A DNA stretch of 47,546 bases from Chloroflexota bacterium. Lineage in GTDB: Bacteria; Chloroflexota; Dehalococcoidia; Dehalococcoidales; JAFGLR01. Under the pieces are notes generated by a model. The model was given only the letters and a program-made list of their open reading frames with translations, ran no database searches and was not told the DNA's origin. This document shows, in pieces, positions 12,819-33,674 of this stretch (positions within the stretch are counted from its first letter, which is position 1; the number at the start of each line of letters is the position of its first letter). The position numbers and the translations under genes were made by a program. The DNA lies in assembly GCA_016210585.1 (NCBI GenBank), contig JACQTX010000044.1:1-47546 (forward strand). The letters run 5' to 3'.

Positions 12819-13811
12819 ATGGCTTTTCAGACGCAGGATGTCCGGCGAAAGACCTTCGCCATTCTTAAGATTCTGAGCGATTCGCCGGAAGCTATAGGGG
12901 CACGGCTCATCGCCCGCCGCCTGAAGGAGCATGGCATAGCTCTCGGCGAGAGGGCAGTCCGTTACCACCTGAAGCTGCTTGACGCGCGTGGCCTGACCCA
13001 ATTAGTAGGAAAAGATGGTCGGCAGATTACCGAGCGCGGCGTAGAGGAACTGGGGAATGCTCTGGTCCGGGAGAAGGTTGGCCTCGCTATCTCCAGAATT
13101 GAGTTGCTGGCTTTTCGCACTACCTTTGACTGGGAGAAACGCTCCGGCAATGTCCCGGTAAACGTTGCCTTCTTTCCCAAGGAACGTTTCGGCAGGGCTG
13201 TGCGGGAAATGAGACCGGTCTTTGAAGCCGGTCTCTGCGTAAGTGACCTGGTGGGTGTTGTCCGTGAGGGTGAGCTTATCGGGGACTATATTGTGCCCCG
13301 CGGACGGATTGGCCTGGTAACTGTCTGTAGTGTGTTGATAAACGGGGTTTTGCTTAAGGCCGGTGTGCCGGTGGACTCGAAATTTGGCGGCATTCTGCAA
13401 ATAAGCGAGGGGAAACCGTTGCGTTTCGTGGAGCTTATCCACTATGCCGGGTCATCCCTGGACCCATCGGAGGTTTTTATCCGGTCACGGATGACCTCGG
13501 TGATGGATGTGGTGGAACAGGGGGAAGGCAATATCCTGGCTAATTACCGGGAGATACCGGCAGCCTGCCGGACGCTGGCGGAGGAGGTAATCGCCAGGCT
13601 GAAGATAGCCGGCATAGGCGGTGTGTTGGTGATGGGCAATACCAGCGAGCCGGTCTGTGAAATACCTGTGGAGCTTGACCGGATTGGCCTTGTGCTGGGT
13701 AGCGGTCTAAACCCGGTGGCCGCCGCCGGCGAAACCGGGCTGGAAGCGGAAAGCCATGCGATGACAGCGGTCATGGACTATGGGAAGCTAACAAAATTCG
13801 GGGAGCTATAG
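12819..13811 (+). CDS. NrpR-like transcriptional regulator (winged HTH + one DUF128/NrpR domain)
   Basis: 330 aa. The N-terminal wHTH (ILKILSDSPEAIGARLIARRLKEHGIALGERAVRYHLKLLD) is followed by an NrpR-type domain (ISRIELLAFRTTFD..., VCSVLINGVLLKAGVP). Confidence 0.65.
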   Translation: MAFQTQDVRRKTFAILKILSDSPEAIGARLIARRLKEHGIALGERAVRYHLKLLDARGLTQLVGKDGRQITERGVEELGNALVREKVGLAISRIELLAFRTTFDWEKRSGNVPVNVAFFPKERFGRAVREMRPVFEAGLCVSDLVGVVREGELIGDYIVPRGRIGLVTVCSVLINGVLLKAGVPVDSKFGGILQISEGKPLRFVELIHYAGSSLDPSEVFIRSRMTSVMDVVEQGEGNILANYREIPAACRTLAEEVIARLKIAGIGGVLVMGNTSEPVCEIPVELDRIGLVLGSGLNPVAAAGETGLEAESHAMTAVMDYGKLTKFGEL

Positions 13812-13813
13812 AG

Positions 13814-14584
13814 ATGAAAGAGGTAAAGGTCATACCCTGCCTGGACATAAGGGAGGGACGGGTAGTGAAAGGCGTGAAGTTCGTCAACCTGAGGGATGCC
13901 CGTGACCCGGTAGAGGCGGCGGAAGCCTACTGCCGCGCGGGTGCCGATGAGCTGGCCTTCCTGGACATCTTCGCCACGGTCGAGAATCGTAAGACGAGGT
14001 TGGAATGGGTCCGCCGAGTCGCGGAAGTCGTCAGTGTCCCCTTCACCGTGGGCGGTGGCATTGCCAGCATCCAGGACATGGACGCCCTGATAGACCTCGG
14101 CGTGGACAAGGTCTCCATAAACACTGCCGCCGTAAAGAACCCGGGTCTCATCCAAGAGGCCGCCCGAGAGTTCGGCAGCGAAAAGATTGTGGTGGCCATA
14201 GACGGACGTAAGAACCCCCTGTCCAGCAATGCCCCGCACCTTGAGGTGGTCATCAAGAGCGGCACGGAGCCGACGGGCATGCATATTTCGGAATGGGCCA
14301 AGCGGGTGGAAGACCTGGGTGCCGGCGAGATCCTGCTTACCAGCAAAGATGCTGACGGCACCAAAGAGGGCTATGACCTGGAGATGACGCGGGAGGCGGC
14401 GCGGGTCGTCAGCATACCGGTGACGGCTTCCGGTGGCGCCGGCAAGCTGGAGCATTTCTATGACGCGGTAATCATCGGGAAGGCATCGGCCGTCCTGGCG
14501 GCTTCTGTTTTTCACTTTGGCGAGATAGCCATACCGGATGTGAAGAGATACCTGAAAGAAAGAGGCATTCCAGTCAAAAGGTAG
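13814..14584 (+). CDS. hisF: imidazole glycerol phosphate synthase cyclase subunit HisF
   Basis: Near-consensus HisF blocks: VIPCLDI..GRVVKGVKF, GADELAFLDI, PFTVGGGI, GVDKVSINTAAV, GAGEILLTSKDADGTKEGYDL, VTASGGAG and AASVFHFGE. Confidence 0.92.
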   Translation: MKEVKVIPCLDIREGRVVKGVKFVNLRDARDPVEAAEAYCRAGADELAFLDIFATVENRKTRLEWVRRVAEVVSVPFTVGGGIASIQDMDALIDLGVDKVSINTAAVKNPGLIQEAAREFGSEKIVVAIDGRKNPLSSNAPHLEVVIKSGTEPTGMHISEWAKRVEDLGAGEILLTSKDADGTKEGYDLEMTREAARVVSIPVTASGGAGKLEHFYDAVIIGKASAVLAASVFHFGEIAIPDVKRYLKERGIPVKR

Positions 14585-14618: not shown

Positions 14619-16190
14619 ATGACATTAAGCAAGCCGAACTATAGTGCCGCCACGGTAACAACAACGCGGGTGGCGCCGGCACCCATCTCAGGGATATGCG
14701 TTACCTGTGTTGACGGCTGCCCGGGCTACTGCGAGGTGGGGCGGTCAGCACTGCGGGGGAGGGAGGTCATCTATCCCAAGCCCTTTGGCAAGGTGATAGC
14801 CGGCTCGGAGAAGGACTACCCGGTTGATTTCTCCCACTTCAATATCCAGGGCACCTGTGTTGGGGCCGTAGGCGTGGCTGCCGACCCGGACAAAGCAGTC
14901 TTTCATGCCGTTGACCTGTCCGTGGAAATCGGTGGTGAGAAAAACAAGATAAAGATGAAGGTGCCCTTCTTCACCGGGGCCCTCGGCTCGACGGAGATAG
15001 CCCGGGTGAACTGGGAGGGCACGGCGGTGGCCGTGGCCATGTGCGGCGCCGTGCTTGTCTGCGGCGAGAACGTCTGCGGCATGGACCCTGAAGCTACCAT
15101 CAAGAATGGCAAGATAGTGGACTCCCCGGAGCTCGCCCGGCGGGTGAAGACATACAAGGATTGGTATAACGGGTATGGCGCCATGCTGGTCCAGGCCAAT
15201 GTAGAGGATACCCGCCTCGGTGTGCCGGAGTATGCCGTGCAATCCCTGGGCGTGGAGGGCATCGAGATAAAGTGGGGGCAGGGCGCCAAGGACATCGGTG
15301 GTGAAGTTAAGCTGCCCACGCTGCAGCGGGCACTCCAGCTCAAACAGCGGGGCTATATTGTCATCCCGGACCCGGAGAACCCCTTTGTGCAGGAGTCCCA
15401 TAAGCTCGGCGGCATAACGGAGTTCGAGCGGCACTCCCGCCTGGGCATGGTGGACGAGGAGTCCTTCCTCAAGGAAGTCGAGCGGTTCCGGAAAATCGGC
15501 GCCAAGTATGTCACGCTCAAGACCGGTGCCTATAAAGCGTCTGACCTGGCCCGCGCCGTAAAGTATGCTTCGGAGGCCAAGATTGACCTGCTGACGGTTG
15601 ATGGTGCTGGCGGTGGCACAGGGATGAGCCCCTGGCGGATGATGAACGAGTGGGGTATTCCCACCGTATACCTGGAGAGTATGCTTTATAAATTCCTCAA
15701 GCGCCTGGACGAAAAGGGCGAATATGTGCCTAGCTGTGCTATTGCCGGTGGTGTCTCCCTCGAGGACCACGTCTTCAAGGCTTTAGCCCTGGGTGCACCA
15801 TACGTGAAGGCTATCTGTATGGGCCGGGCTACCCTGACGGCAGCTATGGTCGGCAAGACGCATGGCCAGCTCATGGCGGAGAGCTTCGGTGACGGGGGTA
15901 GCAAGGAATACCAGGAAGCCCTGCTGCGCACCTTCGCGGGCGCGGCCCAGCTGAAGGAGAAGTTCGGCGAGGACTTCACCCGGATTCCACCGGCAGCTAT
16001 CGGCATCTATACTTACTATGACAGGCTCGCCACCGGCCTGCGGCAGATGATGGCCGGCGAGCGCAAGTTCGCCCTGCAATATCTGGAAAGAAGCGACCTG
16101 ATGTCATTGACCCGTGAAGCGGCGGACGTCTCCGGTATCCCCTACGTCATGGAGGCGGACATGGCAGCCGCGGAGAAGATTCTGGGCTAG
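14619..16190 (+). CDS. FMN-dependent glutamate-synthase (GltB central domain)-like oxidoreductase with N-terminal Cys cluster
   Basis: 523 aa with a strong RBS (AAGGAGG). It has an N-terminal CVTCVDGCPGYC motif and Glu_synthase-type blocks (IEIKWGQGAKDIGGE, LLTVDGAGGGTGMSP, IAGGVS). Confidence 0.75.
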   Translation: MTLSKPNYSAATVTTTRVAPAPISGICVTCVDGCPGYCEVGRSALRGREVIYPKPFGKVIAGSEKDYPVDFSHFNIQGTCVGAVGVAADPDKAVFHAVDLSVEIGGEKNKIKMKVPFFTGALGSTEIARVNWEGTAVAVAMCGAVLVCGENVCGMDPEATIKNGKIVDSPELARRVKTYKDWYNGYGAMLVQANVEDTRLGVPEYAVQSLGVEGIEIKWGQGAKDIGGEVKLPTLQRALQLKQRGYIVIPDPENPFVQESHKLGGITEFERHSRLGMVDEESFLKEVERFRKIGAKYVTLKTGAYKASDLARAVKYASEAKIDLLTVDGAGGGTGMSPWRMMNEWGIPTVYLESMLYKFLKRLDEKGEYVPSCAIAGGVSLEDHVFKALALGAPYVKAICMGRATLTAAMVGKTHGQLMAESFGDGGSKEYQEALLRTFAGAAQLKEKFGEDFTRIPPAAIGIYTYYDRLATGLRQMMAGERKFALQYLERSDLMSLTREAADVSGIPYVMEADMAAAEKILG

Positions 16191-16201: not shown

Positions 16202-16411
16202 ATGCTGAAGACAGTTTGTATCAAACACTGCGCGGACCCCTTCTGCGCGGTAGCTTGCCCTTCCGGAGCACTGATAGTCACGGAAGACGAGATCAAGGTG
16301 GACTCTGACAAGTGCCACGGCTGCGGCATCTGCCGCCTGGTATGTATGACCTGGAGTCGTGACCATGTGATGCGGACAAAGAGCCGCTTCTGGCTGGCCG
16401 GGCGGCTGTAG
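16202..16411 (+). CDS. small 4Fe-4S ferredoxin-domain protein
   Basis: 69 aa with a GAGGAG RBS. It has CAVACPSGA and CHGCGICRLVC motifs. It starts 12 nt after the previous stop. Confidence 0.65.
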   Translation: MLKTVCIKHCADPFCAVACPSGALIVTEDEIKVDSDKCHGCGICRLVCMTWSRDHVMRTKSRFWLAGRL

Positions 16412-16441
16412 TCGAATATCTAGCAGGACGTTAAGCGCGCA

Positions 16442-16720: not shown

Positions 16721-18073
16721 ATGAACCAAGTAAGAGAAAACCTATTCCTGCAGTTTTCCATCGTAAGCTTTGTAGCCCTGGTCATAATAGCGTTTGTTCT
16801 TAACGCTTCCATCGCTTCTGCTGTCCGCTCGCATGCCGAAGCCGCCCTAGCCAGCGAGGCAGTAGCTATGGCATCGAACCACCTCGTTGCCAGAATCACA
16901 CTGGCAGACCTTGAAACCCCGATGACTGGGGATCGGTATGACCGTTTTGACGCATTTGTGAAGACATCTATACTTAGCGGAAACACAGCCCGGGTAAAGG
17001 TGTGGGCCAAAGACGGAACGATAATCTATTCTGATAGCCGTGAAGCGGTAGGGAAGAAATTCCCTACAAACGAGCGGATGTTGCGGGCATTGAACGGCGA
17101 AACTATTGCTGAGATAGAAAAACCGGAGAGTGAAGAGACTGAAACGGAAGCGTCTCTCGGGGTCCTGATGTCCGTATATACTCCCATCGTTTTCGCAGAC
17201 ATCAGCGAGGCTAAGGGAGTCTTTGAGATTTACCAGTACTACGAGCCAACAGGACAGCTCATCGCCAAGCTGCACAGATGGGCTTCGTTATCAATCAGTG
17301 CTGGGTTCTTGCTGCTTTACGGTGCGCTGGTAGGCATTGTGTGGCGAGGCTGGCGGACTATTAAGCGGCAGCAAGCGGCACTGGTCACCTCAGACCGGCT
17401 GGCCTCCATCGGTGAGCTAGTCTCGGGCGTTGCTCATGAGATTAATAACCCGTTGACTAGCGTTATCGGGTTTTCCCAGCTATTGCTGGAAAAAGACGTC
17501 TCACCGGATATCAAGAGTGACCTGCAAGTGGTCCATGACGAGGCCCAGCGCACAGGGAGAATAGTGAAAAACCTGCTCAGCTTTGCCCGCCAGCAGGCAC
17601 CTATCAAACAGCTGACAAACGTAAACAGCGTTATCGAGAGAGTGCTCGCCTTGCGTGCCTATGAGCAGAAAGTAAACAACATCCAAGTCAATGCGCAGCT
17701 TGCCCCGGGTCTGCCGGAAATCATGGCCGACCCGTCACAGCTGCAACAGGTATTTTTCAACCTGGTTATCAACGCCGAGCACTTTATGCTAAAGGCACAT
17801 AAGCGTGGCACCCTGACCATATTGACGGAGAAGTCTGGCAGAACGGTGAGGGTTACCTTTACCGATGACGGTCCCGGTATTCCGAAGGAGCATATGAAGC
17901 GTCTGTTCACCCCCTTCTTTACGACAAAAGAGGTCGGCAAGGGCACCGGGCTGGGACTTAGCATTTGCTATGGCATAATAACCAGGCATGGTGGCCGAAT
18001 CTACGCTGAAAGTGAGCCGGGCAAAGGGGCTACCTTTATCGTGGAGCTGCCGATTACGCAGCAGCTTAAATAG
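16721..18073 (+). CDS. sensor histidine kinase (two TM helices, extracytoplasmic sensor, HisKA + HATPase_c)
   Basis: H-box SGVAHEINNPLT, plus N (NLVINAEHF), G1 (DDGPGI) and G2 (GKGTGLGLS) boxes. TM helices at about aa 8-30 and 187-208 flank a sensor domain of about 155 aa. No response regulator gene is adjacent. Confidence 0.85.
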   Translation: MNQVRENLFLQFSIVSFVALVIIAFVLNASIASAVRSHAEAALASEAVAMASNHLVARITLADLETPMTGDRYDRFDAFVKTSILSGNTARVKVWAKDGTIIYSDSREAVGKKFPTNERMLRALNGETIAEIEKPESEETETEASLGVLMSVYTPIVFADISEAKGVFEIYQYYEPTGQLIAKLHRWASLSISAGFLLLYGALVGIVWRGWRTIKRQQAALVTSDRLASIGELVSGVAHEINNPLTSVIGFSQLLLEKDVSPDIKSDLQVVHDEAQRTGRIVKNLLSFARQQAPIKQLTNVNSVIERVLALRAYEQKVNNIQVNAQLAPGLPEIMADPSQLQQVFFNLVINAEHFMLKAHKRGTLTILTEKSGRTVRVTFTDDGPGIPKEHMKRLFTPFFTTKEVGKGTGLGLSICYGIITRHGGRIYAESEPGKGATFIVELPITQQLK

Positions 18074-18277
18074 ATATCCGTGACTTTCTTCCTGAAAACA
18101 ACTTTTTCTTTCTCGCCTCGTATCGCCATGCGGTGGTAGATTCAGCCGGCATCCAGATACCAGACCGTCCTGGATTCCGGTTGGAGTTTACCCCGTTCAC
18201 GGTGGACTGTTCAAGGTGTTACCCGTGCTTCGACACGAGGCCGGAATGGACAGCGGTTGTATTTTCGGGGTGATAAC

Positions 18278-19393
18278 ATGCACTCCTCAGAACTCAATAT
18301 TGCCATCATCGGTGCCGGGGTCATTGGCCTGGCCGTAGCGGCGGAAATGGCACAGAAGCACAGGGGCGTCTATGTCTTCGAGAGAAACCGCACCTTCGGC
18401 CTGGAGACGAGCAGTCGGAACAGCGAGGTCATCCACGCCGGTATCTACAATCCCCCCGGCTCGCTGAAGGCAAAGCTCTGCGTCGAAGGCAGAGAGCTAC
18501 TCTATGAGCTTTGTGCGCGCCACGGCATCAGCCATCGTAAGCTAGGCAAAATCATTGTGGCCGTGGACGAAGATGAATTCGGGAAGCTGGAAAGGCTCTG
18601 CGAGCAGGGCAGAGAGAATGGTGTTGACGATTTGCGTTTTCTCTCCCGAAAAGAGCTAAGACAGCTTGAGCCGGAGGTAGAAGGTATCGGTGGCTTGCTC
18701 TCCCCTTCCACCGGCATCCTTGACGTCCATGCCCTGATGAGCTTCTTTCACAGCCAGGCAAAACGAAGTGGTGCTGAGTTCGTCTTCAACGCGGAGGTGA
18801 TTGGCCTGGAAAAGACCGGCACAAAATACCGCCTGGGCGTCAGGGATAGAGAGGGTATCCAGTCTGTTCTTGCCAGAATAGTCATAAACTGTGCTAGCCT
18901 GAACTCAGACCAGATAGCCCAACTCGCTGGCATTGACACCTCGGAAGCAGGCTACAGGCTTCACTACTGCAAAGGGGAATATTTCAGCCTCAGCCCGCCG
19001 CAGCGCGATCTGGTCAGCCGGCTTGTTTATCCGGTCCCGGAGGAATCAGGGCTGGGCATTCACATCACCCGTGATATCGAAGGGAAGCTGCGGCTCGGCC
19101 CCAATGCCTATTACATAGATAACATAGACTATAAGGTGGACGATACTCATAAAGAAGCCTTCTACCAGGCGGTCAAGAGATTTCTGCCCGCTATTGAACG
19201 GGAATGGCTGGCCCCCGATTTCGCCGGTATCCGGTCCAAGCTCCAGGGACCGGGCGACGGTTTCCGTGACTTCGTCATCGCTCATGAGGACAAGCGCGGT
19301 CTGCCCGGCCTTATCAACCTCATCGGTATTGAGTCTCCCGGCCTCACCGCCTCGCCGGCTGTTGCGAGATACGTGGCGGGAATGATAGAATAA
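18278..19393 (+). CDS. FAD-dependent oxidoreductase, L-2-hydroxyglutarate oxidase/dehydrogenase (LhgO)-like
   Basis: I prefer ATG 18278 over the track's TTG at 18257. It has an N-terminal Rossmann IAIIGAGVIGLAVAAE, plus SSRNSEVIHAGIY and a C-terminal GIESPGLTASPAVA block typical of this DAO-type subfamily. Confidence 0.7.
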   Translation: MHSSELNIAIIGAGVIGLAVAAEMAQKHRGVYVFERNRTFGLETSSRNSEVIHAGIYNPPGSLKAKLCVEGRELLYELCARHGISHRKLGKIIVAVDEDEFGKLERLCEQGRENGVDDLRFLSRKELRQLEPEVEGIGGLLSPSTGILDVHALMSFFHSQAKRSGAEFVFNAEVIGLEKTGTKYRLGVRDREGIQSVLARIVINCASLNSDQIAQLAGIDTSEAGYRLHYCKGEYFSLSPPQRDLVSRLVYPVPEESGLGIHITRDIEGKLRLGPNAYYIDNIDYKVDDTHKEAFYQAVKRFLPAIEREWLAPDFAGIRSKLQGPGDGFRDFVIAHEDKRGLPGLINLIGIESPGLTASPAVARYVAGMIE

Positions 19394-19395: not shown

Positions 19396-19872
19396 ATGTT
19401 ATCGGGGTTTGTTGTGGCTGACGAGCTAGCGAAAATCTTAGCATCATACCGGGGCAACAGAAGCGAGCTACTGTCCATTCTGCGAGAAGTGCAGGACACC
19501 TTCAACTATCTACCGGAAGAAGCCATGCGGCAGGTGGCCAAGTTCATTGGCATTCCGGAAAGCCAACTCTACTCTGTGGCCTCTTTCTACTCTCATTTCC
19601 GCCTGACGCCACTGGGTCGGAAGCGGATTTCCGTCTGCCGCGGCACGGCCTGTCACATTCGCGGTGCCCCGCAGGTCATAGAGGAGGCCGGGCGTCTCCT
19701 TGGCGTCAAGGAATCGGAGACAACACCTGACCTGGAATATACCCTGGAGACTGTGGCCTGTATCGGCTGCTGTGCACTGGCACCCTGCCTGCGTGTGAAT
19801 GAGGAAGTCCACGGCGAGGTGACGCTGAAGAAGGTGCGGGAGCTACTGCCCGACTTGAACAATGGAGCATAG
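19396..19872 (+). CDS. NuoE/HydC-like [2Fe-2S] thioredoxin-fold subunit
   Basis: CRGTACHIRG ... CIGCCALAPC Cys pattern. 158 aa. It starts 2 nt after the upstream stop. Confidence 0.85.
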   Translation: MLSGFVVADELAKILASYRGNRSELLSILREVQDTFNYLPEEAMRQVAKFIGIPESQLYSVASFYSHFRLTPLGRKRISVCRGTACHIRGAPQVIEEAGRLLGVKESETTPDLEYTLETVACIGCCALAPCLRVNEEVHGEVTLKKVRELLPDLNNGA

Positions 19873-21499
19873 CATGGCGGACGGGCAGTGCACAGTGACA
19901 GTTTGCCAGGGGACTGGCTGTATCTCCAATGGCGCCGACCGGCTCTACGCCGCGTTGCAGGCCGAAGTGGTTCGACTCAACCTCGGTGACAGTATTCACG
20001 TCAAGCAGACTGGTTGCCAGGGCTTCTGCCAGCGCGGACCGCTCGTTATCACCAGGCCTGATGGCACCTTCCATTGCAGGGTCACACCGGAAGACGTCCC
20101 CGATTTTGTCCAATCGCTTTTGCCTGGCGGCAAGCCTGCCGAGCGCCTCTACTATCGCGACATGGTGACGGCGCGGGCGACAGCCCACTGGGCGGATATT
20201 CCCTTCTACTACCAGCAGGAGCGCCGTGTCCTGCGCAACTGCGGGCATATTGACCCGGAGAATATCGAGGAATACATAGCCGCTGGCGGCTACCGGGCAC
20301 TGCACCGTGCCCTGTTTGAGATGGCGCCGGAGGAGGTTATCGCCGAGGTCAAACGCTCCGGGCTGCGCGGGCTGGGCGGCGCCGGTTTCCCGGCAGGGCG
20401 CAAGTGGGAGAGCTGCCGGAAAGCCCCAGGCGAGCCGAAGTTCGTCATCTGCAATGCCGACGAGGGCGACCCCGGTGCTTTTCAGGACCGCTCGCTTTTG
20501 GAGGGCGACCCCCACTCCGTTCTGGAAGGCATGACCATCGCCGCCTACGCGGTAGGTGCTCACAAAGGCTTCGTCTATGTTCGCGCCGAGTACCCACTGG
20601 CTGTGAGGCGCCTTGGGGTTGCCGTGACGCAGATGCGGGAAAAGGGCTATCTGGGCAAAGGCATCCTGGGCAGCGGCTTTGATTTCGATATCGAAATCTT
20701 CCAGGGCGCCGGGGCTTTCGTCTGTGGCGAGTCAACAGCCCTGGTGCTCTCCATCGAAGGCAAACGTGGTATGCCTAAGGCACTGCCCCGGCCGCGCACG
20801 TCCGAGGTCGGCCTGTGGGGTAAGCCTACCCTGCTCAACAACGTGAAGACCTTTGGCAACGTCCCGCTCATTATCGCCCACGGCGCCGATTGGTTTGCTC
20901 GCCTGGGCAATGCGCAGAGCAAGGGCACGGCTATCTTCTCCCTTACGGGCAAAATTGTCAATAGCGGCCTCATCGAGGTGCCTATGGGCACCCGGCTACG
21001 TGAGGTTATCTATGACATCGGCGGGGGGATTCCTGACGGGCGGGCTTTCAAGGCGGTACAAACGGGCGGGCCTTCCGGTGGCTGCCTGCCAGCCTCCATG
21101 CTCAACATGCCCGTGGACTTTGATTCCCTCAAGGCTGCCGGCTCCATGATGGGGTCGGGCGGCATGGTAATCATGGATGAGGACACGTGCATGGTTGATG
21201 TGGCCCGCTATTTCCTCGATTTCTCGCGCCGCGAGTCCTGCGGGCAGTGCACCCCTTGCCGTGTGGGCACGCAGCAGATGTTTGCCATTCTGGATGATAT
21301 TACGCAGAGGAAAGGCAAGCCGGGTGACATCGAAGTGCTTTTGGAGCTGGGCGAGGCAATGGCGCAGACCTCCATCTGTGCCCTGGGCCAGACGGCGCCC
21401 AATCCCGTGCTGACCACTATCCGCCACTTCCGCTCCGAGTATGAAGCCCATATTTACGAGAAGCGATGTCCGGCCGGCGCCTGCCGGGCATACCTGTAG
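19862..21499 (+). CDS. NuoF/HydB-like NAD(H)-binding FMN/[4Fe-4S] subunit with N-terminal [2Fe-2S] domain
   Basis: GLRGLGGAGFPAGRKW, CNADEGDPGAF, GAGAFVCGESTAL, ESCGQCTPCRVG and ICALGQTAPNPV blocks. It overlaps the nuoE-like gene by 11 nt. Confidence 0.9.
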   Translation: MEHSMADGQCTVTVCQGTGCISNGADRLYAALQAEVVRLNLGDSIHVKQTGCQGFCQRGPLVITRPDGTFHCRVTPEDVPDFVQSLLPGGKPAERLYYRDMVTARATAHWADIPFYYQQERRVLRNCGHIDPENIEEYIAAGGYRALHRALFEMAPEEVIAEVKRSGLRGLGGAGFPAGRKWESCRKAPGEPKFVICNADEGDPGAFQDRSLLEGDPHSVLEGMTIAAYAVGAHKGFVYVRAEYPLAVRRLGVAVTQMREKGYLGKGILGSGFDFDIEIFQGAGAFVCGESTALVLSIEGKRGMPKALPRPRTSEVGLWGKPTLLNNVKTFGNVPLIIAHGADWFARLGNAQSKGTAIFSLTGKIVNSGLIEVPMGTRLREVIYDIGGGIPDGRAFKAVQTGGPSGGCLPASMLNMPVDFDSLKAAGSMMGSGGMVIMDEDTCMVDVARYFLDFSRRESCGQCTPCRVGTQQMFAILDDITQRKGKPGDIEVLLELGEAMAQTSICALGQTAPNPVLTTIRHFRSEYEAHIYEKRCPAGACRAYL

Positions 21500-21506
21500 G
21501 GTTTGT

Positions 21507-21585
21507 AGCTATCAGCAGTCAGCCTTCGGTTTGTGTATTGTAAATAATCAATAAGCTGATAGCTGAAAGCTGATTGCTGATAGCT
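21507..21585. repeat. palindromic intercistronic repeat (agctatcagc family)
   Basis: The arms agctatcagcagtcagc (21507-21523) and gctgattgctgatagct (21569-21585) are 16/17 complementary. It shares 13-nt agctgattgctga and 10-nt gctgaaagct with 42829-42897. Confidence 0.6.
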
Positions 21586-21600
21586 TCGTGTTGGGGTCTG

Positions 21601-24156
21601 ATGGAAACAGTTACACTGACAATTGACGGTCGAAACGTGGTTGCCGAGCGGGGCATCACTGTCCTTGAGGCAGCGCTTGAGAATGGCATCTACATCCCGC
21701 ACCTGTGCTACCACCCGGACTTCGAGTCACATAGTGCCTGTCGGCTGTGCCTGGTTGACACCGGCGATGGCGAGCTTTTGCCCTCCTGCCGACTGACGGT
21801 AGCACCAGGTATGGTTGTTACGACCAATAGCCAGATGATTGAGCGGGCGCGCCGCTCCATACTGGAGATGATGGTCGCCGACCACCATACCACCTGCCGG
21901 GGTTGCCCCAGCAGCGGGCAGTGTGAGCTACAACGGATTATGGGACGGCTGCGCATAGACCGCAAACGTCTCGAAAGGCTGAGATGGCCCACTGAGGATT
22001 TACCACGCGACACGTCCAATCCCTTCTTCGACTTTGACCCCAACAGATGCGTGCTCTGCGGCATTTGCGTCAAGACCTGCGAGGAGATCCAGGGGGCTGA
22101 TGCCATCTATTACACCGCCCGGGGTAATATGACCCGGATCGCCCCCTTCGGCAACAAGCCGTTCGCCCAGTCCCGCTGCGAGTCCTGTGGCGAGTGTGTA
22201 GTCCGGTGCCCCGTCGGGGCTCTGGTGACGAAGAACGTCCAGCGTCCCAAGCAAGAGGTAAAGTCGGTCTGCCCTTACTGCGGGGTTGGCTGCGGTATCT
22301 ATCTGGGTATCCGCGAGGGCGTCATCGTTGATGTGCGCGGTGATACGGCAAGCCCCGTCAATGGCGGCCACCTCTGCGTGAGAGGTCGCTACGGCTGGCG
22401 CTTTGTCCATTCGCCGGAGCGTCTCACGACGCCGCTTGTCAAGAAGAGCGGTGAGCTTGTTCCGGCGTCCTGGGACGAAGCTTTGAGTCTGGTGGCGGAA
22501 AGACTGGCTGGCTACCGCGGCGACCGGTTTGCTATGGTTACCTCAATCAAGCTCACCAACGAAGAGGCTTATCTGGCGCAGAAGTTCGCCCGGACAGTTA
22601 TGGACAGCAACAACATAGATAGCGATGCCCGCCTGTCTGACGCGCCCACACTGGCAGCCTTGCAGAGGACGGTGGGCATGGGTGCCACCAGCCCGCTCAG
22701 TGAGCTGGCGCAGGCAGCTACCATTCTGGCTATTGGGACAAATGCTACCGAGACGCATCCAGTGGTTGGAGCGCGGCTAAGGCAGGCGGCGCGCCGGGGT
22801 GCCTCCCTCATTGTGGCCAATCCACGCGAAATTGACCTCTGCCGCCACGCCAGGATGTGGCTGAGGCCGCACCTGGGCACGGACGTAGCTCTTATCATGG
22901 GGATATGCCGTGTCATTCTGGAAGAAGGGCTGGTGGACGCCAGTCTTGTTGATGAGAAGGCTGCCGGTCTTACGGCCTGGCGTGAGTCACTGCGTGACTT
23001 CAGCCTGGGACGGGTGGAGCGGATTACGGGTGTTCCCCAGGAGGAAATAGCAGAAGCTGCCCGTCTCCTGGCCAGCGGGCCGACGGCTATCGTCTATGGT
23101 GCTGGGATTACCCAACATACCCATGGAACGGACAACGTCCTGGCGCTCATCAATCTGGCGCTGCTTCTCAATACTGGCAACGATAGTCTGAGGCTTTACC
23201 CGCTCCAGGCGCATAACAATGCTTTGGGTGTCTGTGACATGGGCTGCCTGCCGGACTACTTGCCCGGTTATGCGGCCGTGGCTGACGCATCGGTCCGTGA
23301 GCGGCTCGCAGCCGTCTGGAAAGCTGATTTGCCGGCTAGTCCTGGCCGGACCCTGACAGAGATGTGGTCGGCACTGGCGTCGGGGACGGTGAAGGCATTA
23401 TACCTTGTGGGTGCTGACCCCTTGTCAACTATGCCCGGCCATGAGGCAGTACGGCAAGCCCTTGCGTCCGCGGCGTTCGTAGTTGTCCAGGACATGTTCC
23501 TCACCGAGACGGCCAGGCACGCCGATGTCGTTCTACCGGCCGCCAGCTTCGCGGAGCAGGAGGGAACTTTCACCAATATGGAGCGGCGCCTGCAGCGCGT
23601 CCGTAGAGCTATATCACCGGTGGGTGACTCTCGCCCGGGCTGGCAGATTATCACCGAGCTGGCCGGCAGGATGGGTAGCAAAGGTTTCGCTTTCGGCAGT
23701 GCGGCAGAAATAATGGCAGAGGTCGCTGCACTGGTCCCGCCATACGAAAAAGCGAGCCCGGAGGAAAGCACACTATGTAGCTTCCCCGCGGCTGACAGAC
23801 GCTTCGCGCCACTGGCATATGAGCCAGTGGAGAAGATTGCCGATATTGACTACCCATTGCTCCTGGTCACAGAAAGCTGCTTATACCATCATGGTAACTG
23901 GTCAGCCAGAGTGGCCGGACTCAAGGTGCTGGCGGACGAGCCATTTCTACAGGTAAATCCAAAGGATGCCGCGGACTACGGTGTCACGAATGGCCAGATG
24001 GTGCAGGTCGCGTCAAAGCAGGGGGAAATGGTCACAAAAGCTATTGTTTCGGATGTCACGCCGCCCGGCGTGGTGACTCTGAAGGGCGGCGCCCAAGACC
24101 TTCAGGCGTTGCAGGCTGGGCTGACGGCGGTCCGTATAGTCCCCCAAACAGAATGA
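21601..24156 (+). CDS. formate-dehydrogenase-alpha-like molybdopterin-family subunit with substituted active site (Ser/Asp/Gln)
   Basis: I prefer ATG 21601 (METVTLTIDGR...). The N-terminal 2Fe-2S and 4Fe-4S motifs and CPYCGVGC are conserved. The active-site block reads DSDARLSDAPT instead of HCARL(U/C)HAPT, and YPLQAHNNALG instead of NPLRGQNNVQG. Confidence 0.85.
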   Translation: METVTLTIDGRNVVAERGITVLEAALENGIYIPHLCYHPDFESHSACRLCLVDTGDGELLPSCRLTVAPGMVVTTNSQMIERARRSILEMMVADHHTTCRGCPSSGQCELQRIMGRLRIDRKRLERLRWPTEDLPRDTSNPFFDFDPNRCVLCGICVKTCEEIQGADAIYYTARGNMTRIAPFGNKPFAQSRCESCGECVVRCPVGALVTKNVQRPKQEVKSVCPYCGVGCGIYLGIREGVIVDVRGDTASPVNGGHLCVRGRYGWRFVHSPERLTTPLVKKSGELVPASWDEALSLVAERLAGYRGDRFAMVTSIKLTNEEAYLAQKFARTVMDSNNIDSDARLSDAPTLAALQRTVGMGATSPLSELAQAATILAIGTNATETHPVVGARLRQAARRGASLIVANPREIDLCRHARMWLRPHLGTDVALIMGICRVILEEGLVDASLVDEKAAGLTAWRESLRDFSLGRVERITGVPQEEIAEAARLLASGPTAIVYGAGITQHTHGTDNVLALINLALLLNTGNDSLRLYPLQAHNNALGVCDMGCLPDYLPGYAAVADASVRERLAAVWKADLPASPGRTLTEMWSALASGTVKALYLVGADPLSTMPGHEAVRQALASAAFVVVQDMFLTETARHADVVLPAASFAEQEGTFTNMERRLQRVRRAISPVGDSRPGWQIITELAGRMGSKGFAFGSAAEIMAEVAALVPPYEKASPEESTLCSFPAADRRFAPLAYEPVEKIADIDYPLLLVTESCLYHHGNWSARVAGLKVLADEPFLQVNPKDAADYGVTNGQMVQVASKQGEMVTKAIVSDVTPPGVVTLKGGAQDLQALQAGLTAVRIVPQTE

Positions 24157-26380: not shown

Positions 26381-26429
26381 ATCTATGCGTAAAGGCGGCC
26401 AAGTCGAGACTCTTTTCAGGGGGTGTGCT

Positions 26430-27892: not shown

Positions 27893-30574
27893 CTACACGG
27901 CAACCGATTGTTTCAGTTTCTCCACCCTTACCGCGCAGACCTTAAGCTCGGGGATTTTGGCTACCGGGTCAAGGGCGGGGCTGGTGAGACGGTTGGCGGG
28001 ACTTTCGGCGAAGTGGAAGGTCATGAAGACCACGCCCGGCGGGGTAGTAGCCGTCAGCTTTGCCCTGGCCGCTACCGTATCACGGCGAGAGGTTATCCGG
28101 ACGGTGTCACCGTCCGCGATGCCCAGTGCCGCAGCATCAGCCGGATTGATTTCGACAAGCTCTTCGCCCATGAACTTATTCAGCCCACCGACCTTCCGGC
28201 TCATGGTGCCGGTGTGGAACTGGAACAGGCTGCGGCCCGTGGTCAGAATGAGAGGATACTCCGCGTCGGGAAGCTCTTGCGGCGGCTTATACTTCAGAGG
28301 TAGGAACTGGCCTTTGCCACGCGTGAACTGGGCCGTATGCAGGATGGGTGTCCCCGGGTGTTTCTCGTCCGGACAAGGCCAGGTCAGACCGCCTGTCTCC
28401 AGCCGGTCGTAGGTAATGCCGCCATAGCTCGGCGTGACGCGGGCAATCTCGGCCATAATCTGGGCCGGGCTGGCAAAGTCAAAGCCCTTGCCGCCCATCC
28501 GCCGGGCAATCTCGCAGGCAATCCACCAGTCTGAACGGGCTTCGCCAACCGGCGCCAGGGCTTGCCTGACCCGCTGCACGCGGCGCTCGGTATTGGTAAA
28601 GGTGCCTTCCTTCTCGGCAAAGGAGACGCCAGGTAAGATAACATCGGCTAATTGTGCCGTCTCCGTCAGGAAAATGTCCTGCACCACAAGGAAGTCCAGC
28701 TTCTCCAGTGCCTTTCTCACATGGCTGGCATCCGGGTCGGAGAGCACCGGGTTTTCGCCGATAAGGTAGACCGCCTTTATCTTGCCCTGGTGGGCGGCAT
28801 CCATAATCTCGGTCAGTGTCAGTCCCGGCTTGTCATCCAGGGTGACGCCCCAGGCGGATTCAAACTTGGCCTTGACGGCCGGGTTGCTCACCGCCTGATA
28901 GCCGGAATAGACATTGGGCAGGGCACCCATATCGCAGGCACCCTGGACATTGTTCTGGCCACGCAGGGGATTAACGCCGGACGAGGGCTTACCCACGTTG
29001 CCGGTGAGCATCGCCAGGTTGGCGATAGCCATGACATTGTCCGTGCCATGCGAGTGCTGGGTAATACCCATGGCGTAGATGATGGACGCCGGGCGGGTGG
29101 TAGCGTAGAGCCGCGCCGCCTCCACTATCTTTGCGACGGGAACGCCCGTAATCTGTGCCACAGAGTCCAGGTCAAAGTCCTTGAGCGATTCCCGGAAGGC
29201 AGCGAAGTTCTCGCCGCGTTGCTCAATAAAAGCTTGGTCAAGCAGTCCTTCAGCAACGATAACCCGCGCCATGCCCATCAGCAGGGCAACATCGCTGCCC
29301 GGGTTCTGCTGGAGCCAGATGTCAGCATAGCGCACCAGCTCAATCTCACGGGGGTTGGCCACGATGAGCTTATTGCCCTTGCGTGTAGCCTGCTTGACGA
29401 TGAAGCCAATCACCGGGTGAGCCGCCGTCGTGTTGGAGCCGATGGCTAAGATACAGGCGGCATCCTTCAGCTCCCCTATCGAGTTAGTCATGGCCCCACT
29501 ACCAAAGCTTTGCGCCAGACCGGCGACAGTGGGGGCATGTCAAAGCCGGGCACAGTGGTCAACGTTGTTCGTGCCGAGAACAGCGCGGGCCAGCTTCTGA
29601 AAGACGTAGTTCTCTTCGTTGGTGCACTTGGCAGAGGTGATGACGGCGACCTCGCCTTTCTGGTAGCTGGCCAGCTTGCGGGCAACGAGGTCAAGGGCCT
29701 CATCCCAGCTAACTTTTTTCAGCTCACCATCCCGGCGCACCAGGGGCGCGGTCAGCCGGTCGGGATGGCTGACGAACTCACCGATGCCGTAGCGGCCTTT
29801 CACACACAGCCAGCCCTTATTGGGACTGTCCTCACGCTTGCCGCGCACGCTCACGATTTCGTGACCACGAATGCCTAGGGACATCTGGCAGCCCACGCCG
29901 CAGTAGGGACAGGTTGTCAGGACCTCACGGGTGGGGCGGCGGGACTCCTTGGGTGCCAGGGCACCGGTAGGACAATGGGCGACGCACTCGCCGCAGGACT
30001 TGCAGATGGAGCTAATCATAAGCTGGTCACCGAAGGTGGCCACCTTGCTCTGGTAGCCGCGGTAGGCCAGGTCAATAGCCCCGACACAGGTGATTTCATT
30101 GCAGGCGCGCACGCAGCGGGCACAGAGAATGCAACGGTTGCGGTCAAGGTCAAAGAAGGGGTTGCTGTCATCCACCGGGAAAGTCCGGGTGGTCTTGGGA
30201 TAGGGCAACCTGGTAATACCGAGGTAAGCCGCCACCTTCTGTAGCTCACAGCGCTGGTTCTGCGGACAGGTCAGACATTCGCTATAGTGGTCAGCACAAA
30301 GCAGCTCAACGGCGGCACGGCGGACATCGTTGGCCGCCGGCGTATCCGTATGGACAACCATGCCTTCCGTGGCCGGCGTAGTGCAAGAGGTGGGCAGGCC
30401 ACGCATCTTCTCAATCTCAACCACGCAGAGACGGCAACCGCCGTAAGGCTCCAGGTCAGGGTCATGGCAAAGGGTGGGGATATAGACGCCGGCGGCCTGG
30501 GCCGCCTCGAGCACCGTGGCCCCTTTCTTAACCTTGACCTCTCGCCCGTCAACAGTCAGTCTTATCTCGTCCAA
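27893..30574 (-). CDS. fdhA: selenocysteine-containing formate dehydrogenase alpha subunit (NAD-linked FdhA type), 893 aa with in-frame UGA
   Basis: Track ORFs 29540..30574 and 27893..29491 are in the same frame, separated only by TGA (plus-strand TCA at 29540-29542). Read-through gives [26 protein letters not shown], the canonical FdhH/FdhA active-site block. NPLRGQNNVQGACDMG is also present. TTG start at 30574 after AGGAGG. Confidence 0.85.
29494..29542 (-). promoter_or_regulatory. UGA (Sec) codon plus bacterial SECIS-like hairpin
   Basis: mRNA: UGA CAU GCC CCC ACU GUC GCC GGU CUG GCG CAA AGC UUU GGU AGU GGG G. A CGCC/GGCG stem with a GGUCU loop starts 18 nt after the UGA, the same spacing and GGUC loop as I recall for E. 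coli fdhF. It is nested in a 7-bp CCCCACU/AGUGGGG stem. Confidence 0.6.
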
Positions 30575-30583
30575 AATGGCCTC

Positions 30584-33500
30584 CTATTCATGCTCCTCAA
30601 GGTCACAACGCAAGCAGCGCCTCGCCTCTTCTGCCGCCAGCTCCGCGGTCAGGCCAAGCTCAACCGTGGCAAAGCTGCAAAGGCGCTGGCCAAGCGGCAG
30701 CACGGGCATGACAGGCCGGCGTTTCTCACCCGCCTCCTCAAGCGGCTTAAGCTCGCCTTCGGGCGGCGCCAGCTTCTCATCAATCTCACCCTTGCCGCCG
30801 AGGGACTTGTCTATCGAAATAGCCGCCTGTCGGCCGGCGGCAATGGCCTCAATGACCGAAGCCGGCCCGGTGACGGCATCACCCCCGGCGAAGATACCAG
30901 CTTTACCGGTCGCCAGCGTATCCAGATCAACCTTAATGGTATTGCCGCCGCCAGTGGTCAATTCTCCGGGAACTTCCGGCTGCTGTCCTATAGCCGCTAT
31001 TACGGTATCGAAGACAAGAGAGAACTCACTGCCCTTTACTGCCACCGGGCGCCGCCGTCCCGAAGTGTCAACATCACCCAGGGCCATATGGACGCACTCC
31101 AATTGCACCTGCTTGCCTTGCTGGGCTATCTTCGTCGGTGCTGACAGGAAAAGGACTTGGACGCCCTCGGCCAGGGCGTCTTCAATCTCCTCATCGCTGG
31201 CCGGCATCTCGGCACGGGTGCGCCGGTAAATCATAGTGACTTCCGCAGCGCCAAGACGCAGTGCCGTGCGCGCCGCATCAATGGCAGCATTGCCGCCACC
31301 AATAACCGCTACCTTATCGCCCACAGCTACCGTGTGGCCGAGGTTAACTTCTCTCAGGAACGATACGCAATCTATTACCTGCGGGCTGTCTTCGCCGGGG
31401 ATGCCCAGCTTGAGACCGCGGTGCGCCCCTACGGCCAGGAAGACCGCCTGGTAGCCTTGCGCCAGCAGGCTCTCCGGATTCTCAATGCGAGTGTTCGTCT
31501 TTATCTTGACGCCGGCGTTCTCTATTTCCGCAATCTCCGCGCCCAGCATGTCCTTGGGCAGGCGGTAATCGGGGATGCCCACCTTCATCATGCCGCCCGG
31601 CTCCGGCAGTGCCTCAAAGACCGTCACGGAATGCCCCAGCCTGGCCAGGTAGTAAGCCGCTGTCAGGCCGGCCGGGCCTGAGCCGACCACCGCCACCTGT
31701 TTGCCGGTGGGCGGCGCCGCCTTGACGCCCTGCTTCCACAGCCCGTTGCCAAACTCGGCGGCAAACCGCTTGAGCATACGGATGCCGACGGCCTCATCAA
31801 GCTGGCCGCGGCGGCACTTCGTCTCGCAGGGATGGACGCAGACATAGCCACAGACCGAGGGGAAGGGTATCTTCTCCCGGATGACAGCTACCGACTCATC
31901 CGGCTTGCCCGCTTCGATGAAGCGGATATAGCGCGGCACATCAATGCCCGCCGGGCAGGTATGGCTACAGGGTGCCCTGACCAGGCCGGAACACACCGCG
32001 GCCGCGCAGTGATGTTTCTTAATGTGCTCCTCATATTCGTTCCGGAAGTAGCGCAGGCTGGAGAGCACGGGATTGGGTGCCGTCTGCCCCAGGCCACAGA
32101 GGGAGCCGATCTTGACCTGTTTGCCCAGGTCTTCCAGCAATGCAATGTCCTCCGGCGTGCCCTGGCCGCGGGCGATTTTCCCCAGCGTATCCATTATCTG
32201 CTTGGTGCCCAGCCGGCACATGACGCATTTGCCGCAGGACTCGGACTGGGTGAACGAGATGAAGTAGCGGGCGAAGTCCACCATGCAGGTGTCCTCATCC
32301 AGGACCACCATGCCGCCGGAGCCCATGATGGAGCCGGCCTCGGTGAGCGACTCGTAGTCAACGGATAAGTCCAGGCGGCTGGCCGGGATACAGCCCCCGG
32401 AGGGGCCACCCGTCTGGACGCCCTTCAGCCGCTTGCCGCCGGCCACGCCATCGCCGATATCATAGATAATCTCTTTCAAAGTGATGCCGATGGGCACCTC
32501 GATGAGCTGGGGCTTATTGACCTTGCCCACCAAAGAGAAGGTCTTGGTGCCCTTGCTGCGCGCTGAGCCGTAGCAGGCAAACCACTCGGCGCTGTTGTGC
32601 AGAATGGCCGCCACGGCGGCCCACGTCTCGGTGTTGTTGATGTTGGTCGGTTTGCCCCACAGCCCGGCCTGGGCCGGGAAGGGTGGGCGGGGACGGGGCA
32701 TACCCCGTTTCCCCTCGATGGAGGCCATCAGCGCCGTCTCCTCGCCGCAGACAAAGGCCCCGGCGCCTTCTTTGATTTTAATGTGGAAGCTGAAACCACT
32801 GCCCAGTATGTTGTCACCGATGAAGCCATACTCCGTCGCCTGCTGAAGCGCCAGCTTCAACCGCTCAATGGCCAAGGGGTATTCGGCACGGATATAGACA
32901 TAGCCCTCGGTCGCCCCGATAGCATAGGCCCCGATGAGCATCCCCTCCAGCACAGAGTGGGGGTCGCCCTCGATGAGCGAGCGGTTCATAAAGGCGCCAG
33001 GGTCGCCCTCATCAGCGTTGCAGACGATGTATTTGATCTTGCCAGGCGATTGCCGGCAAAGCTCCCACTTGGTCCCGGTAGGGAAGCCGGCGCCGCCGCG
33101 CCCGCGCAGGCCTGATTTCTTTATCTCCTGGATAACACCCTCCGGCGTCATCTTGAGCGTCTTGACCAGCCCGCCGTAGCCGCCGCGGGCGATGTAGTGG
33201 TCAAGCTTTTCCGGGTCAATAAAGCCGCAGTTGCGCAGGATAATACGCACCTGGGGCTTCAGCATGGGTAGCTCGAAGAAATTGGAGATACCAGCCACGC
33301 TGCCTTCGCCCATACTGCCCAGTGCCAGGTCCGGCTGCGGGTTGTCTTTGATAAGGTAGTCCTCGATGAGGTGGGCTGCTATTTCCGGGGTTACATTGCT
33401 GTAGCAGATGCGGGGGCGGCCTGGCTTTACTATGTCCAGCAAAGGCTCGGCGTAGCACAGGCCGATACAGCCGGTCTGCATGATAATGGCGTCAAGCTGG

Positions 33501-33655: not shown

Positions 33656-33674
33656 GTTTATACCTCAATTACCT

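Follow-up and report, generated by a model that had tools for sequence, protein, structure and literature searches.

The gene studied here, hereafter FdhAL, encodes a protein related to the alpha subunit of formate dehydrogenase (FDH) and lies on the plus strand of a 47,546-nt stretch of Chloroflexota DNA, which is a complete NCBI contig. This whole stretch is called the window, and L-numbers designate the loci fetched for comparison. We propose that FdhAL has lost formate oxidation and now behaves like NuoG, as an Fe-S wire and scaffold, in the NADH-input module of a split glutamate-synthase-like system, its molybdenum (Mo) domain being vestigial. We give this proposal a probability of about 0.62. 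Sequence comparison indicates that FdhAL descends from the alpha subunit of a NAD-dependent FDH. An earlier sequence-only reading had described the substituted catalytic residues but had missed the decisive context, which is a cluster of genes for the nitrogen regulator NrpR, an FMN-binding glutamate-synthase-family protein (GluS), a small ferredoxin, NuoE and NuoF, together with a DAO-family flavoprotein. The parts of the gene on which the argument turns are the following.

21601..24156, plus strand: FdhAL, 851 aa, of FdsA/FdhA architecture by Pfam, with a TIGR01591 score below the curated cut-off.
21601..22245, plus strand: HoxU/NuoG-type N-terminal Fe-S module (aa 1-215), with one 2Fe-2S, one His/Cys3 4Fe-4S and two 4Fe-4S clusters.
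22246..22416, plus strand: FS0 4Fe-4S domain (aa 216-272), with Cys224/227/231/259 retained and a conserved Lys replaced by Arg261.
22636..22641, plus strand: Ser346 (TCT) and Asp347 (GAC), aligned with the Mo-ligand selenocysteine (Sec) or Cys and with the catalytic His.
23206..23208, plus strand: Gln536 (CAG), aligned with the formate-positioning Arg (FdhH R333, RcFdsA R587).
24085..24108, plus strand: approximate site of a 14-residue deletion in the C-terminal cap (domain IV), from the alignment with FdhH.

When FdhAL was aligned by HMMER with FdsA from Rhodobacter capsulatus (RcFdsA, 6tg9), with residue numbers checked by counting, Cys386-His387 corresponded to Ser346-Asp347 and Arg587 to Gln536. 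A MAFFT alignment that included the Escherichia coli FdhH sequence, taken from NC_000913.3, gave the same result (U140 to S346, H141 to D347, R333 to Q536). Both alignments confirm the earlier proposal that these residues, encoded as it had read them by TCT (22636-22638), GAC (22639-22641) and CAG (23206-23208), are the equivalents of SeCys140, His141 and Arg333 of FdhH. In the cryo-EM structure of RcFdsA, Cys386 is the Mo ligand, His387 tunes the pKa, Arg587 positions formate and Val592 stands beside the sulfido ligand, while the C-terminal cap domain shields and contacts the bis-molybdopterin guanine dinucleotide (PMC7171172). Changes in FdhAL extend beyond the triad. Val592, which adjoins the sulfido ligand, is replaced by Ala541 (V338 in FdhH), K44 of FdhH is replaced by R261 (codon 22381-22383), and the deletion of 14 residues in the cap removes the conserved N.LT...DP..K.PE.K stretch. 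At the same columns, the minus-strand FdhA of the window (27893-30574) reads K-U(TGA)-H-R. The triad is (C/U)-H-R in 58/58 canonical FdhA-type genes from the fetched loci, so the substitutions in FdhAL are not chance variation.

The Fe-S chain, also described earlier as intact, is complete. Ligands were found for the 2Fe-2S cluster (Cys36/47/50/63), the His-ligated 4Fe-4S cluster (His95 with Cys99/102/108), two further 4Fe-4S clusters (Cys150/153/156/160 and Cys193/196/199/203) and FS0 (Cys224/227/231/259). All 19 Fe-S cysteines are invariant in the 15 full-length members of the clade to which FdhAL belongs (15/15; 12 are GluS-linked and 3 are on contigs too short for linkage); in these same 15 proteins the Mo-ligand column holds S, C, T, G or Y. 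Losses common to the clade concern His341 and Cys342 directly before the ligand, the Arg, and the Val adjoining the sulfido ligand. Its members also share a 'WPC' insert, and at position 100 they have lost the Leu that in RcFdsA (Leu122) belongs to the dimer interface of FdsA, next to the His-ligated cluster; FdhAL has Arg100.

The Pfam domains of FdhAL come in the order Fer2_4, NADH-G_4Fe-4S_3, Fer4_Nqo3, Molybdop_Fe4S4, Molybdopterin and Molydop_binding, the last match covering profile positions 1-82 of 110. Scored with the FDH-alpha equivalog model TIGR01591, FdhAL reaches 603.6 and stays below the cut-off of 666.25, the only tested member to do so. The Sec-containing FdhA of the window scores 861.9 and the GluS-linked relatives of FdhAL score 700-759; because these latter scores pass the cut-off, the relatives are annotated as FDH alpha. 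FdhAL also stays below the cut-off of the NuoG equivalog TIGR01973 (335.4 bits against 470.05). Its first 215 residues match the HoxU model with 177 bits, short of the equivalog cut-off of 333, and the QrcB model gives 125 bits. The closest solved structures by sequence search are alpha subunits of NAD-dependent FDHs, with E-values down to 1e-163. Inspection of the N-terminus revealed no signal or Tat motif, and nuoE and nuoF lie directly upstream, in keeping with the earlier description of the protein as cytoplasmic and NuoEF-linked.

The best relative of FdhAL among 5.8 billion protein clusters is 57-59% identical to it, and the best among 185,579 species-representative genomes 55%; its own 90% cluster has a 45-aa fragment as representative and is hence absent from the homology search matches. 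Of the best 120 matches, 70 carry K-C-H-R; those most similar to FdhAL group together and read (C/S/G)(H/Q/D/Y)(W/M/L/G/V/S/T/F/Q). A recurrent gene cluster encodes NrpR, GluS (521 aa), a 74-76 aa 2x[4Fe-4S] ferredoxin, NuoE, NuoF and an FdhA-like protein. It was found in Nitrospirota, Thermodesulfovibrionales, Actinomycetota, Ammonifex and unassigned metagenomic contigs, and the partnership with NuoE and NuoF is obligatory in the FdhAL clade. We compared triad type with GluS linkage for 82 full-length FdhA-type genes from all fetched loci, Sec codons being read through. None of the canonical (C/U)-H-R genes was GluS-linked (0 linked, 42 unlinked), and 14 non-canonical ones were (12 unique loci, with 5 unlinked; Fisher p=5.5e-9). 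The association is thus exclusive to degenerate triads. All of the unique GluS-linked full-length homologues (12/12) have non-canonical triads, which differ from one another and scatter over KCDM, KCDW, KCHL, KCQW, KGYQ, KSDF, KSYL, KSYS, KYYS, RTHL and RSDQ. Three degenerate relatives were examined later. L249 and L250 lie beside GluS itself, and L248 shows the order Fd/NuoE/NuoF/FdhAL/NrpR with the upstream gene lost at the contig end.

In the Dehalococcoidia clusters nearest to that of the window, the Mo domain is absent from the orthologous subunit. The clusters L008, L009, L171, L199, L209, L211 and L216 encode at this place a short subunit X of 196-227 aa, and the third subunit of L017, a contig labelled Thermoproteota, is likewise short, within the same range. 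This short X is the N-terminal Fe-S module; its end lies a few residues beyond the CP motif of the second ferredoxin-type cluster, and its identity to residues 1-215 of FdhAL is 49-63%, the stand-alone subunits of 205-230 aa reaching 58-63%. The common order in Dehalococcoidia is (PdxT)-NrpR-HisF-GluS-[Fd]-[NuoE-NuoF-X]-DAO, and FdhAL is the only full-length form that we found in a cluster of this type. A neighbor-joining (NJ) tree of the N-terminal module unites the short forms and all GluS-linked full-length forms in one clade (bootstrap 0.925), the short forms being monophyletic in 67.5% of replicates. Only the monophyly of the whole GluS-linked clade is robust in this tree. Since all outgroups are full-length FDHs, loss of the Mo domain is the parsimonious direction. 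These phylogenetic and synteny data place FdhAL in a separate clade whose members go with the NrpR/GluS/Fd/NuoEF cluster, and they contradict the earlier view of FdhAL as a paralogue of the neighboring Sec-FdhA: the two proteins are 47% identical and belong to different clades, and a local duplication within the window was accordingly rejected.

Two further sets of loci came to light in this survey. A second lineage of short HoxU-like subunits, only distantly related (30-37% identity) and with its own NuoE and NuoF, is present in L173, L178, L186, L214 and L234 (also L202, L213, L027 and L041). It is GluS-linked in Dehalococcoidia and elsewhere, shows the gene order HisF-NuoE-NuoF-X-GluS-DAO, and in the Dehalococcoidia loci DAO is also present. 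In L146:592-10004 and L154:5602-12688, degenerate FdhA-like genes with KCHQ and KNQA cluster with a LipA-like radical-SAM gene, a Pterin_bind gene, NuoE and a Bfu-type NuoF, and in L146 a second set, with a canonical Sec-FdhA, follows immediately downstream. NuoEF-linked FdhA homologues have thus lost the FDH triad on more than one occasion.

To measure the extent of erosion, we used 204 columns that are conserved at >=90% among 58 diverse canonical FdhAs; FdhH and NuoG served as controls. FdhAL retains 90% of these columns in the N-terminal module, 76% in Mo domains II/III and 33% in the cap, the lowest cap retention in its clade. E. coli FdhH, which is active and about 33% identical, has no N-terminal module and retains 85% in Mo domains II/III and 79% in the cap; the corresponding values for the cofactor-less E. 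coli NuoG are 60% in the N-terminal module, 34% and 18%. A predicted structure, for which the sequence-only reading had called, showed the FDH fold. The AlphaFold2 model has a pLDDT of 72.9 with a confident Mo-fold core, and its confidence is low in elements of the former active site and of the cap (residues 537-545, 761-768 and 830-839). With this model, Foldseek retrieved FdsA-type FDHs best, at a TM value of about 0.7, then FdhH and Nap, then NuoG; prediction and Foldseek speak to the fold, cofactor occupancy being beyond their reach.

The Mo domain has evolved faster than the partner subunit NuoF while remaining constrained. In GluS-linked clusters, NuoF, the N-terminal module and the Mo domain have median identities to the window proteins of 0.72, 0.55 and 0.46; the minus-strand operon of the window, compared with canonical FDH operons, gives 0.62, 0.49 and 0.59. 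The median Mo-domain/NuoF identity ratio is 0.64 in GluS-linked clusters versus 0.97 in canonical FDH operons, without overlap (p=2e-6), and the Mo domain is therefore relatively accelerated in the former. Its dN/dS (Nei-Gojobori) is 0.14-0.27 in close GluS-linked pairs versus 0.04-0.21 in canonical pairs. Together with the intact frame of FdhAL, these values bear out the idea of repurposing rather than decay. By analogy with NuoG, the domain would most simply have been retained for folding, assembly or docking.

The other genes needed for the argument are listed below.

12819..13811, plus strand: NrpR-type nitrogen regulator, directly upstream of HisF, with conserved synteny.
13814..14584, plus strand: HisF, which passes the hisF equivalog cut-off, directly upstream of GluS.
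14619..16190, plus strand: GluS, FMN-binding glutamate-synthase-family protein of 523 aa (PF01645), with an N-terminal CxxCxxxCxxxC motif.
16202..16411, plus strand: small 2x[4Fe-4S] ferredoxin of 69 aa, 'DAO-type' subtype.
16721..18073, plus strand: HisKA/HATPase histidine kinase, splitting GluS-Fd from DAO-NuoEF-FdhAL.
18257..19393, plus strand: DAO-family FAD oxidoreductase, recurrent in the Dehalococcoidia NrpR-HisF-GluS cluster.
19396..19872, plus strand: NuoE-type 2Fe-2S subunit, overlapping nuoF and starting 3 nt past the DAO stop codon.
19862..21499, plus strand: NuoF-type NADH/FMN/4Fe-4S subunit of 545 aa, with an N-terminal thioredoxin-like domain.
21500..21600, plus strand: spacer between nuoF and fdhAL, made of a palindromic GCTGAWW heptad element.
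27893..30574, minus strand: canonical Sec FdhA (TGA-Sec), TIGR01591 score 861.9.
30584..33655, minus strand: NuoF::GltD-like fusion of 1023 aa, with an FAD/2x4Fe-4S domain, in the same operon.
33675..34139, minus strand: NuoE of this operon.

In the scheme that we propose, NADH would be oxidized at the NADH-FMN site of NuoE/NuoF, and the electrons would pass through the N-terminal clusters of FdhAL, possibly also FS0, to the small ferredoxin and from there to the Fe-S and FMN centers of GluS. We predict that they leave FdhAL at the His-ligated cluster, beside which Arg100 replaces the interface Leu. The molybdopterin-fold part of FdhAL would be kept as a structural or docking domain. The partner set would consist of GluS, the small 2x[4Fe-4S] ferredoxin and the DAO-family flavoprotein, all NrpR-linked. 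GluS would perform a reductive step of the glutamate-synthase type under the control of NrpR, which senses 2-oxoglutarate, and NuoEF-FdhAL would take the role of GltD in the classical NADPH-dependent glutamate synthase (GOGAT). That these subunits associate, that electrons flow in this direction, that FdhAL lacks a molybdenum- or tungsten-bis-pyranopterin guanine dinucleotide cofactor (Mo/W-bisPGD) and that GluS catalyzes such a reaction is what we infer. The NuoF of the window shares 71-78% identity with its counterparts in GluS-linked clusters and at most 68% with those linked to FDH. No nuoA-D or nuoH-N gene occurs in the 47.5-kb contig.

GluS matches PF01645 (Glu_synthase, FMN-binding) with 59.7 bits, above the cut-off of 20.4, and NCBI and JGI list its relatives as 'FMN-binding glutamate synthase family protein'. 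GluS is extremely conserved: more than 100 cluster representatives share 82-87% identity with it, and the values are 63-84% for proteins of species representatives across phyla and 84-87% for proteins from Dehalococcoidia metagenome-assembled genomes (MAGs). Judging from these last values and from those of DAO (up to 68%), the window probably comes from a Dehalococcoidia genome. No NCBIfam model covers GluS, and a PDB sequence search gave nothing useful. A glutamate-synthase function would fit the genes around it in the comparison loci, namely NrpR, GlnA, a GXGXG protein and glutamine-dependent enzymes (NadE, PurQ/PurSL, PdxT, HisF). NrpR is adjacent in most loci and GlnA in L004, L006 and L249; the GXGXG protein (GltB domain 3) is encoded in L249 and L007, and in L249, from Actinomycetota, it adjoins NrpR-GluS together with GlnA. 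L007:229-9982 carries genes for a GXGXG protein, a response regulator, NadE, PurQ and PurSL further upstream of PdxT, NrpR and HisF. This neighborhood is an island of glutamine-using enzymes, and in the window too PdxT, NrpR and HisF come directly before GluS (12048-14584). HisF was considered as an ammonia-delivering partner of GluS; its adjacency may instead be regulatory and reflect the glutamine-metabolism island, without mechanistic meaning.

Arrangements with another neighbor of GluS exist in Desulfobacterota. In L023:8991-13986, the genes downstream of (NrpR-)GluS-Fd encode a tungsten enzyme of the AFOR family and a Fer4 protein, and in L052:2644-13702 GluS-Fd, AFOR and Fer4 precede HdrA-like, MvhD-like and Fer4 genes, NuoE and a Bfu-type NuoF; the arrangement resembles Bam/Wor-Bfu clusters. 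Loci of this AFOR type suggest that electron-input modules are exchangeable.

Several observations weigh against our proposal. Pterin-core motifs are left in FdhAL (TNEE, G.N....HPV, GTD, ITQH.HG, QD.F..ETA..ADVVLP and FAE..GTFTN.ERR), and, given these and the confidently modeled core fold, it is possible that the protein binds a cofactor. The Mo domain of the relatives is under purifying selection and thus serves some role; the dN/dS ratios come from close pairs within the clade, FdhAL itself having no relative above 59% identity. Its position within the clade is poorly supported: a first NJ tree put it beside L171/L008/L009, with a bootstrap of only 0.04 for this grouping. On the side of GluS, Pfam scans found no glutaminase (GATase_2) or GXGXG gene in the window, and no GATase_2 was seen in any locus inspected. 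The link between the two halves of the cluster is also weaker here than elsewhere. A strong terminator-like hairpin with an 18-bp stem (16441-16480) directly follows the ferredoxin gene, and a promoter-like site (16672-16700) precedes that of the histidine kinase, which is an orphan with no response regulator nearby and has no counterpart at this position in any related Dehalococcoidia locus. Hairpin and kinase gene part GluS-Fd from DAO-NuoEF-FdhAL, and judging from the hairpin and the promoter-like site the two are probably separate transcripts. The small ferredoxins fall into three subtypes whose C-terminal tails covary with the adjoining input module, which is DAO only (L007, L184, L188), NuoEF (L002, L004, L006, L008, L009, L015, L171) or AFOR (L023, L052). 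The ferredoxin of the window is 80-83% identical to those of DAO-without-NuoEF clusters and 41-49% identical to the NuoEF-type ones. Because of the hairpin, the kinase gene and this subtype, coupling of NuoEF-FdhAL to GluS is less certain in the window than in other phyla. This lineage may thus have acquired its NuoEF-FdhAL block at a site downstream of DAO, and DAO could be the immediate partner of the block.

This last arrangement would have NuoE-NuoF-FdhAL pair with DAO, and not with GluS, as an NAD+ oxidoreductase for a 2-hydroxyacid (e.g. L-2-hydroxyglutarate) or glycerol-3-phosphate, FdhAL being only an Fe-S connector. The DAO gene ends 3 nt ahead of nuoE, the hairpin and kinase gene set GluS-Fd apart, and DAO is directly 3' of the short Fe-S subunit in L171, L199, L209, L211 and L216. 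The best family models for DAO, which is up to 68% identical to Dehalococcoidia MAG proteins, are those of L-2-hydroxyglutarate oxidase (260.7 bits) and of type-2 glycerol-3-phosphate oxidase, and neither cut-off is reached. Outside Dehalococcoidia, however, members of the NuoEF-FdhAL clade accompany GluS-Fd in loci that have no DAO, DAO adjoins GluS-Fd without NuoEF in L007, L184, L185 and L188, and it stands alone in many Dehalococcoidia loci. Established redox potentials would moreover make the oxidation of a 2-hydroxyacid or of glycerol-3-phosphate with NAD+ thermodynamically uphill, and we regard this pairing as unlikely. A bifurcating FDH of the Bfu type was rejected: the NuoF of the window ends at residue 545 after its NADH_4Fe-4S domain and, by Pfam, has no C-terminal 2x[4Fe-4S] domain, which is diagnostic of that type and is indeed found as an extra Fer4 domain in the Bfu-type NuoFs of L052, L146 and L154. 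A separate small ferredoxin is encoded near the NuoF of the window, so that bifurcation could still take place. In the Bfu survey a glutamate-synthase class is not listed, and every Fdh-type BfuA subunit counts as formate-oxidizing.

The sequence-only reading had left the choice between a NuoG-like scaffold and a molybdoenzyme with a different substrate. The latter would be a Mo/W-bisPGD enzyme with an NAD(H) partner and with Ser346 as the metal ligand, in the style of the DMSO-reductase subfamily, in which Ser-ligated Mo enzymes exist. The core of domains II/III is mostly kept, the FS0 ligands are retained, dN/dS of the Mo domain stays below 0.3 in relatives, and the organism must have the Sec and Mo/W-bisPGD machinery, as follows from its canonical Sec-FdhA operon (27893..34139). 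Nevertheless, the ligand position varies among orthologues from the same type of cluster (C, S, G, T, Y), as do, freely, the two neighboring catalytic positions; the cap is truncated and eroded, the Lys between FS0 and the pterin is replaced, and the whole domain is missing from the orthologous subunit of sister clusters that keep all other genes. The variable ligand, the eroded cap and the absence of the domain in the nearest Dehalococcoidia thus favor the scaffold, and a molybdoenzyme with another substrate seems to us improbable. More doubtful still is that FdhAL is a non-functional remnant, headed for deletion and merely tolerated in the operon. It is the most eroded full-length member, with the only score below the TIGR01591 cut-off and the poorest cap, its relatives are distant, the Mo domain is lost in sister lineages, and a repeat element separates nuoF from fdhAL. 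Yet its 851-codon frame is uninterrupted, as noted earlier (P ~4e-13 by chance), its 19/19 Fe-S ligands are intact and its G+C content at third codon positions is near that of the adjoining genes. At least the N-terminal part of FdhAL must function, because this module is required in every related cluster.

A parallel can be drawn between FdhAL and NuoG/Nqo3 of complex I, in which N-terminal 2Fe-2S, His-ligated 4Fe-4S and 4Fe-4S clusters precede a molybdopterin fold without a catalytic Mo site. Both have NuoE and NuoF as partners, NuoG chains are among the structural matches of FdhAL, and FdhAL would share the role of electron wire and scaffold. The likeness lies in the working principle and not in family membership, since FdhAL is much closer to true FDHs (about 47-50% identity). 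Unlike NuoG, it has no membrane-arm nuo genes nearby, and its acceptor would be a soluble FMN/Fe-S enzyme and not a quinone. With FdsA/FdhA of R. capsulatus (6TG9/6TGA) it shares the domain order, all five Fe-S sites and partners of the NuoE/NuoF type, but Cys386, His387, Arg587, Val592 and the Lys between FS0 and the pterin (FdhH K44) are replaced and the cap is truncated. Its system also has no FdsD or FdhD genes, and its neighborhood concerns nitrogen metabolism and not one-carbon metabolism. The first 215 residues are homologous to HoxU and orthologous to the stand-alone subunits of 196-227 aa (short BfuA-type), from which FdhAL differs by an additional 636 residues with FS0 and the molybdopterin fold.

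QrcB, ActB and OmeA are degenerate subunits with the Mo-bisPGD fold; OmeA has a Ser at the ligand position and QrcB is not known to bind the cofactor. Like OmeA of Dehalococcoides, QrcB of Desulfovibrio and ActB of alternative complex III, FdhAL would be an FDH-like protein without FDH chemistry in a larger redox complex. In contrast to FdhAL, those three proteins are exported and membrane-associated, without the HoxU-type N-terminal module and NuoEF partners. OmeAB has been described as the FDH-like molybdoprotein of the organohalide respiration complex (PMC6258894). A further comparison concerns GltD, a pyridine-nucleotide-oxidizing flavo-Fe-S module whose electrons pass via low-potential clusters to the FMN of a Glu_synthase-domain protein (PMC8097209). 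NuoEF-FdhAL could be its functional analogue. There is no sequence relationship between the two, and the input consists here of NuoE, NuoF, FdhAL and a separate ferredoxin. GluS itself differs from the NADPH-dependent glutamate synthase in having no fused glutaminase and GXGXG domains.

Degenerate subunits with the Mo-bisPGD fold are already a known kind, as NuoG illustrates. In the searchable literature we found no description of the NrpR/GluS/Fd/NuoEF/FdhA-like cluster or of a degenerate FdhA in it, and this cluster appears to be undescribed. One could then imagine, although we rate this extension at somewhat less than even odds, that it represents a widespread pyridine-nucleotide-dependent, possibly ferredoxin-coupled, split glutamate synthase of anaerobes. 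Its input modules (NuoEF-FdhAL, AFOR-type tungstoenzymes, DAO-type flavoproteins) would be exchangeable, and it would have kept the FDH alpha subunit at every stage of its conversion into a NuoG/HoxU-type wire, the losses beginning with Arg and His and proceeding over the Cys ligand and the cap to the whole domain. The cluster may be the missing electron-input side of the 'archaeal-type' split glutamate synthases of strict anaerobes. The clade would form a graded series from an active-type FDH through a cofactor-less scaffold to an Fe-S-only subunit, and such a series is relevant to the long-held view of a formate dehydrogenase origin for NuoG of complex I. If this extended reading is true, these clusters would offer a living model for the acquisition of NuoG by complex I. 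A practical consequence concerns annotation. The GluS-linked relatives labelled 'formate dehydrogenase subunit alpha' pass the NCBI FDH-alpha model and none has the catalytic triad, and a formate metabolism inferred from such genes in MAGs of Nitrospirota, Actinomycetota and Chloroflexota is probably wrong.

The spacer between nuoF and fdhAL (21500-21600) consists of GCTGAWW heptads with an inverted copy, and its RNA is predicted to fold with -41.7 kcal/mol (z = -5.4). The element recurs in another intergenic region of the window (42829-42897), and its 10-mer occurs 12 times versus 3 expected. It looks like a repeat of the genome resembling repetitive extragenic palindromic elements, and it may uncouple the expression of fdhAL from that of nuoF. 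Elsewhere in the window there are two sets of TRAP transporter genes (DctP/Q/M, 2190-6640 and 34595-39057), each adjoining a gene for an amidinotransferase/ADI-like protein. The region 172-10258 also encodes an amidohydrolase, an acyl-CoA ligase, a ChsH2-like OB-fold protein and a thiolase-like protein, and a GmrSD-type restriction gene is located at 26385-27800.

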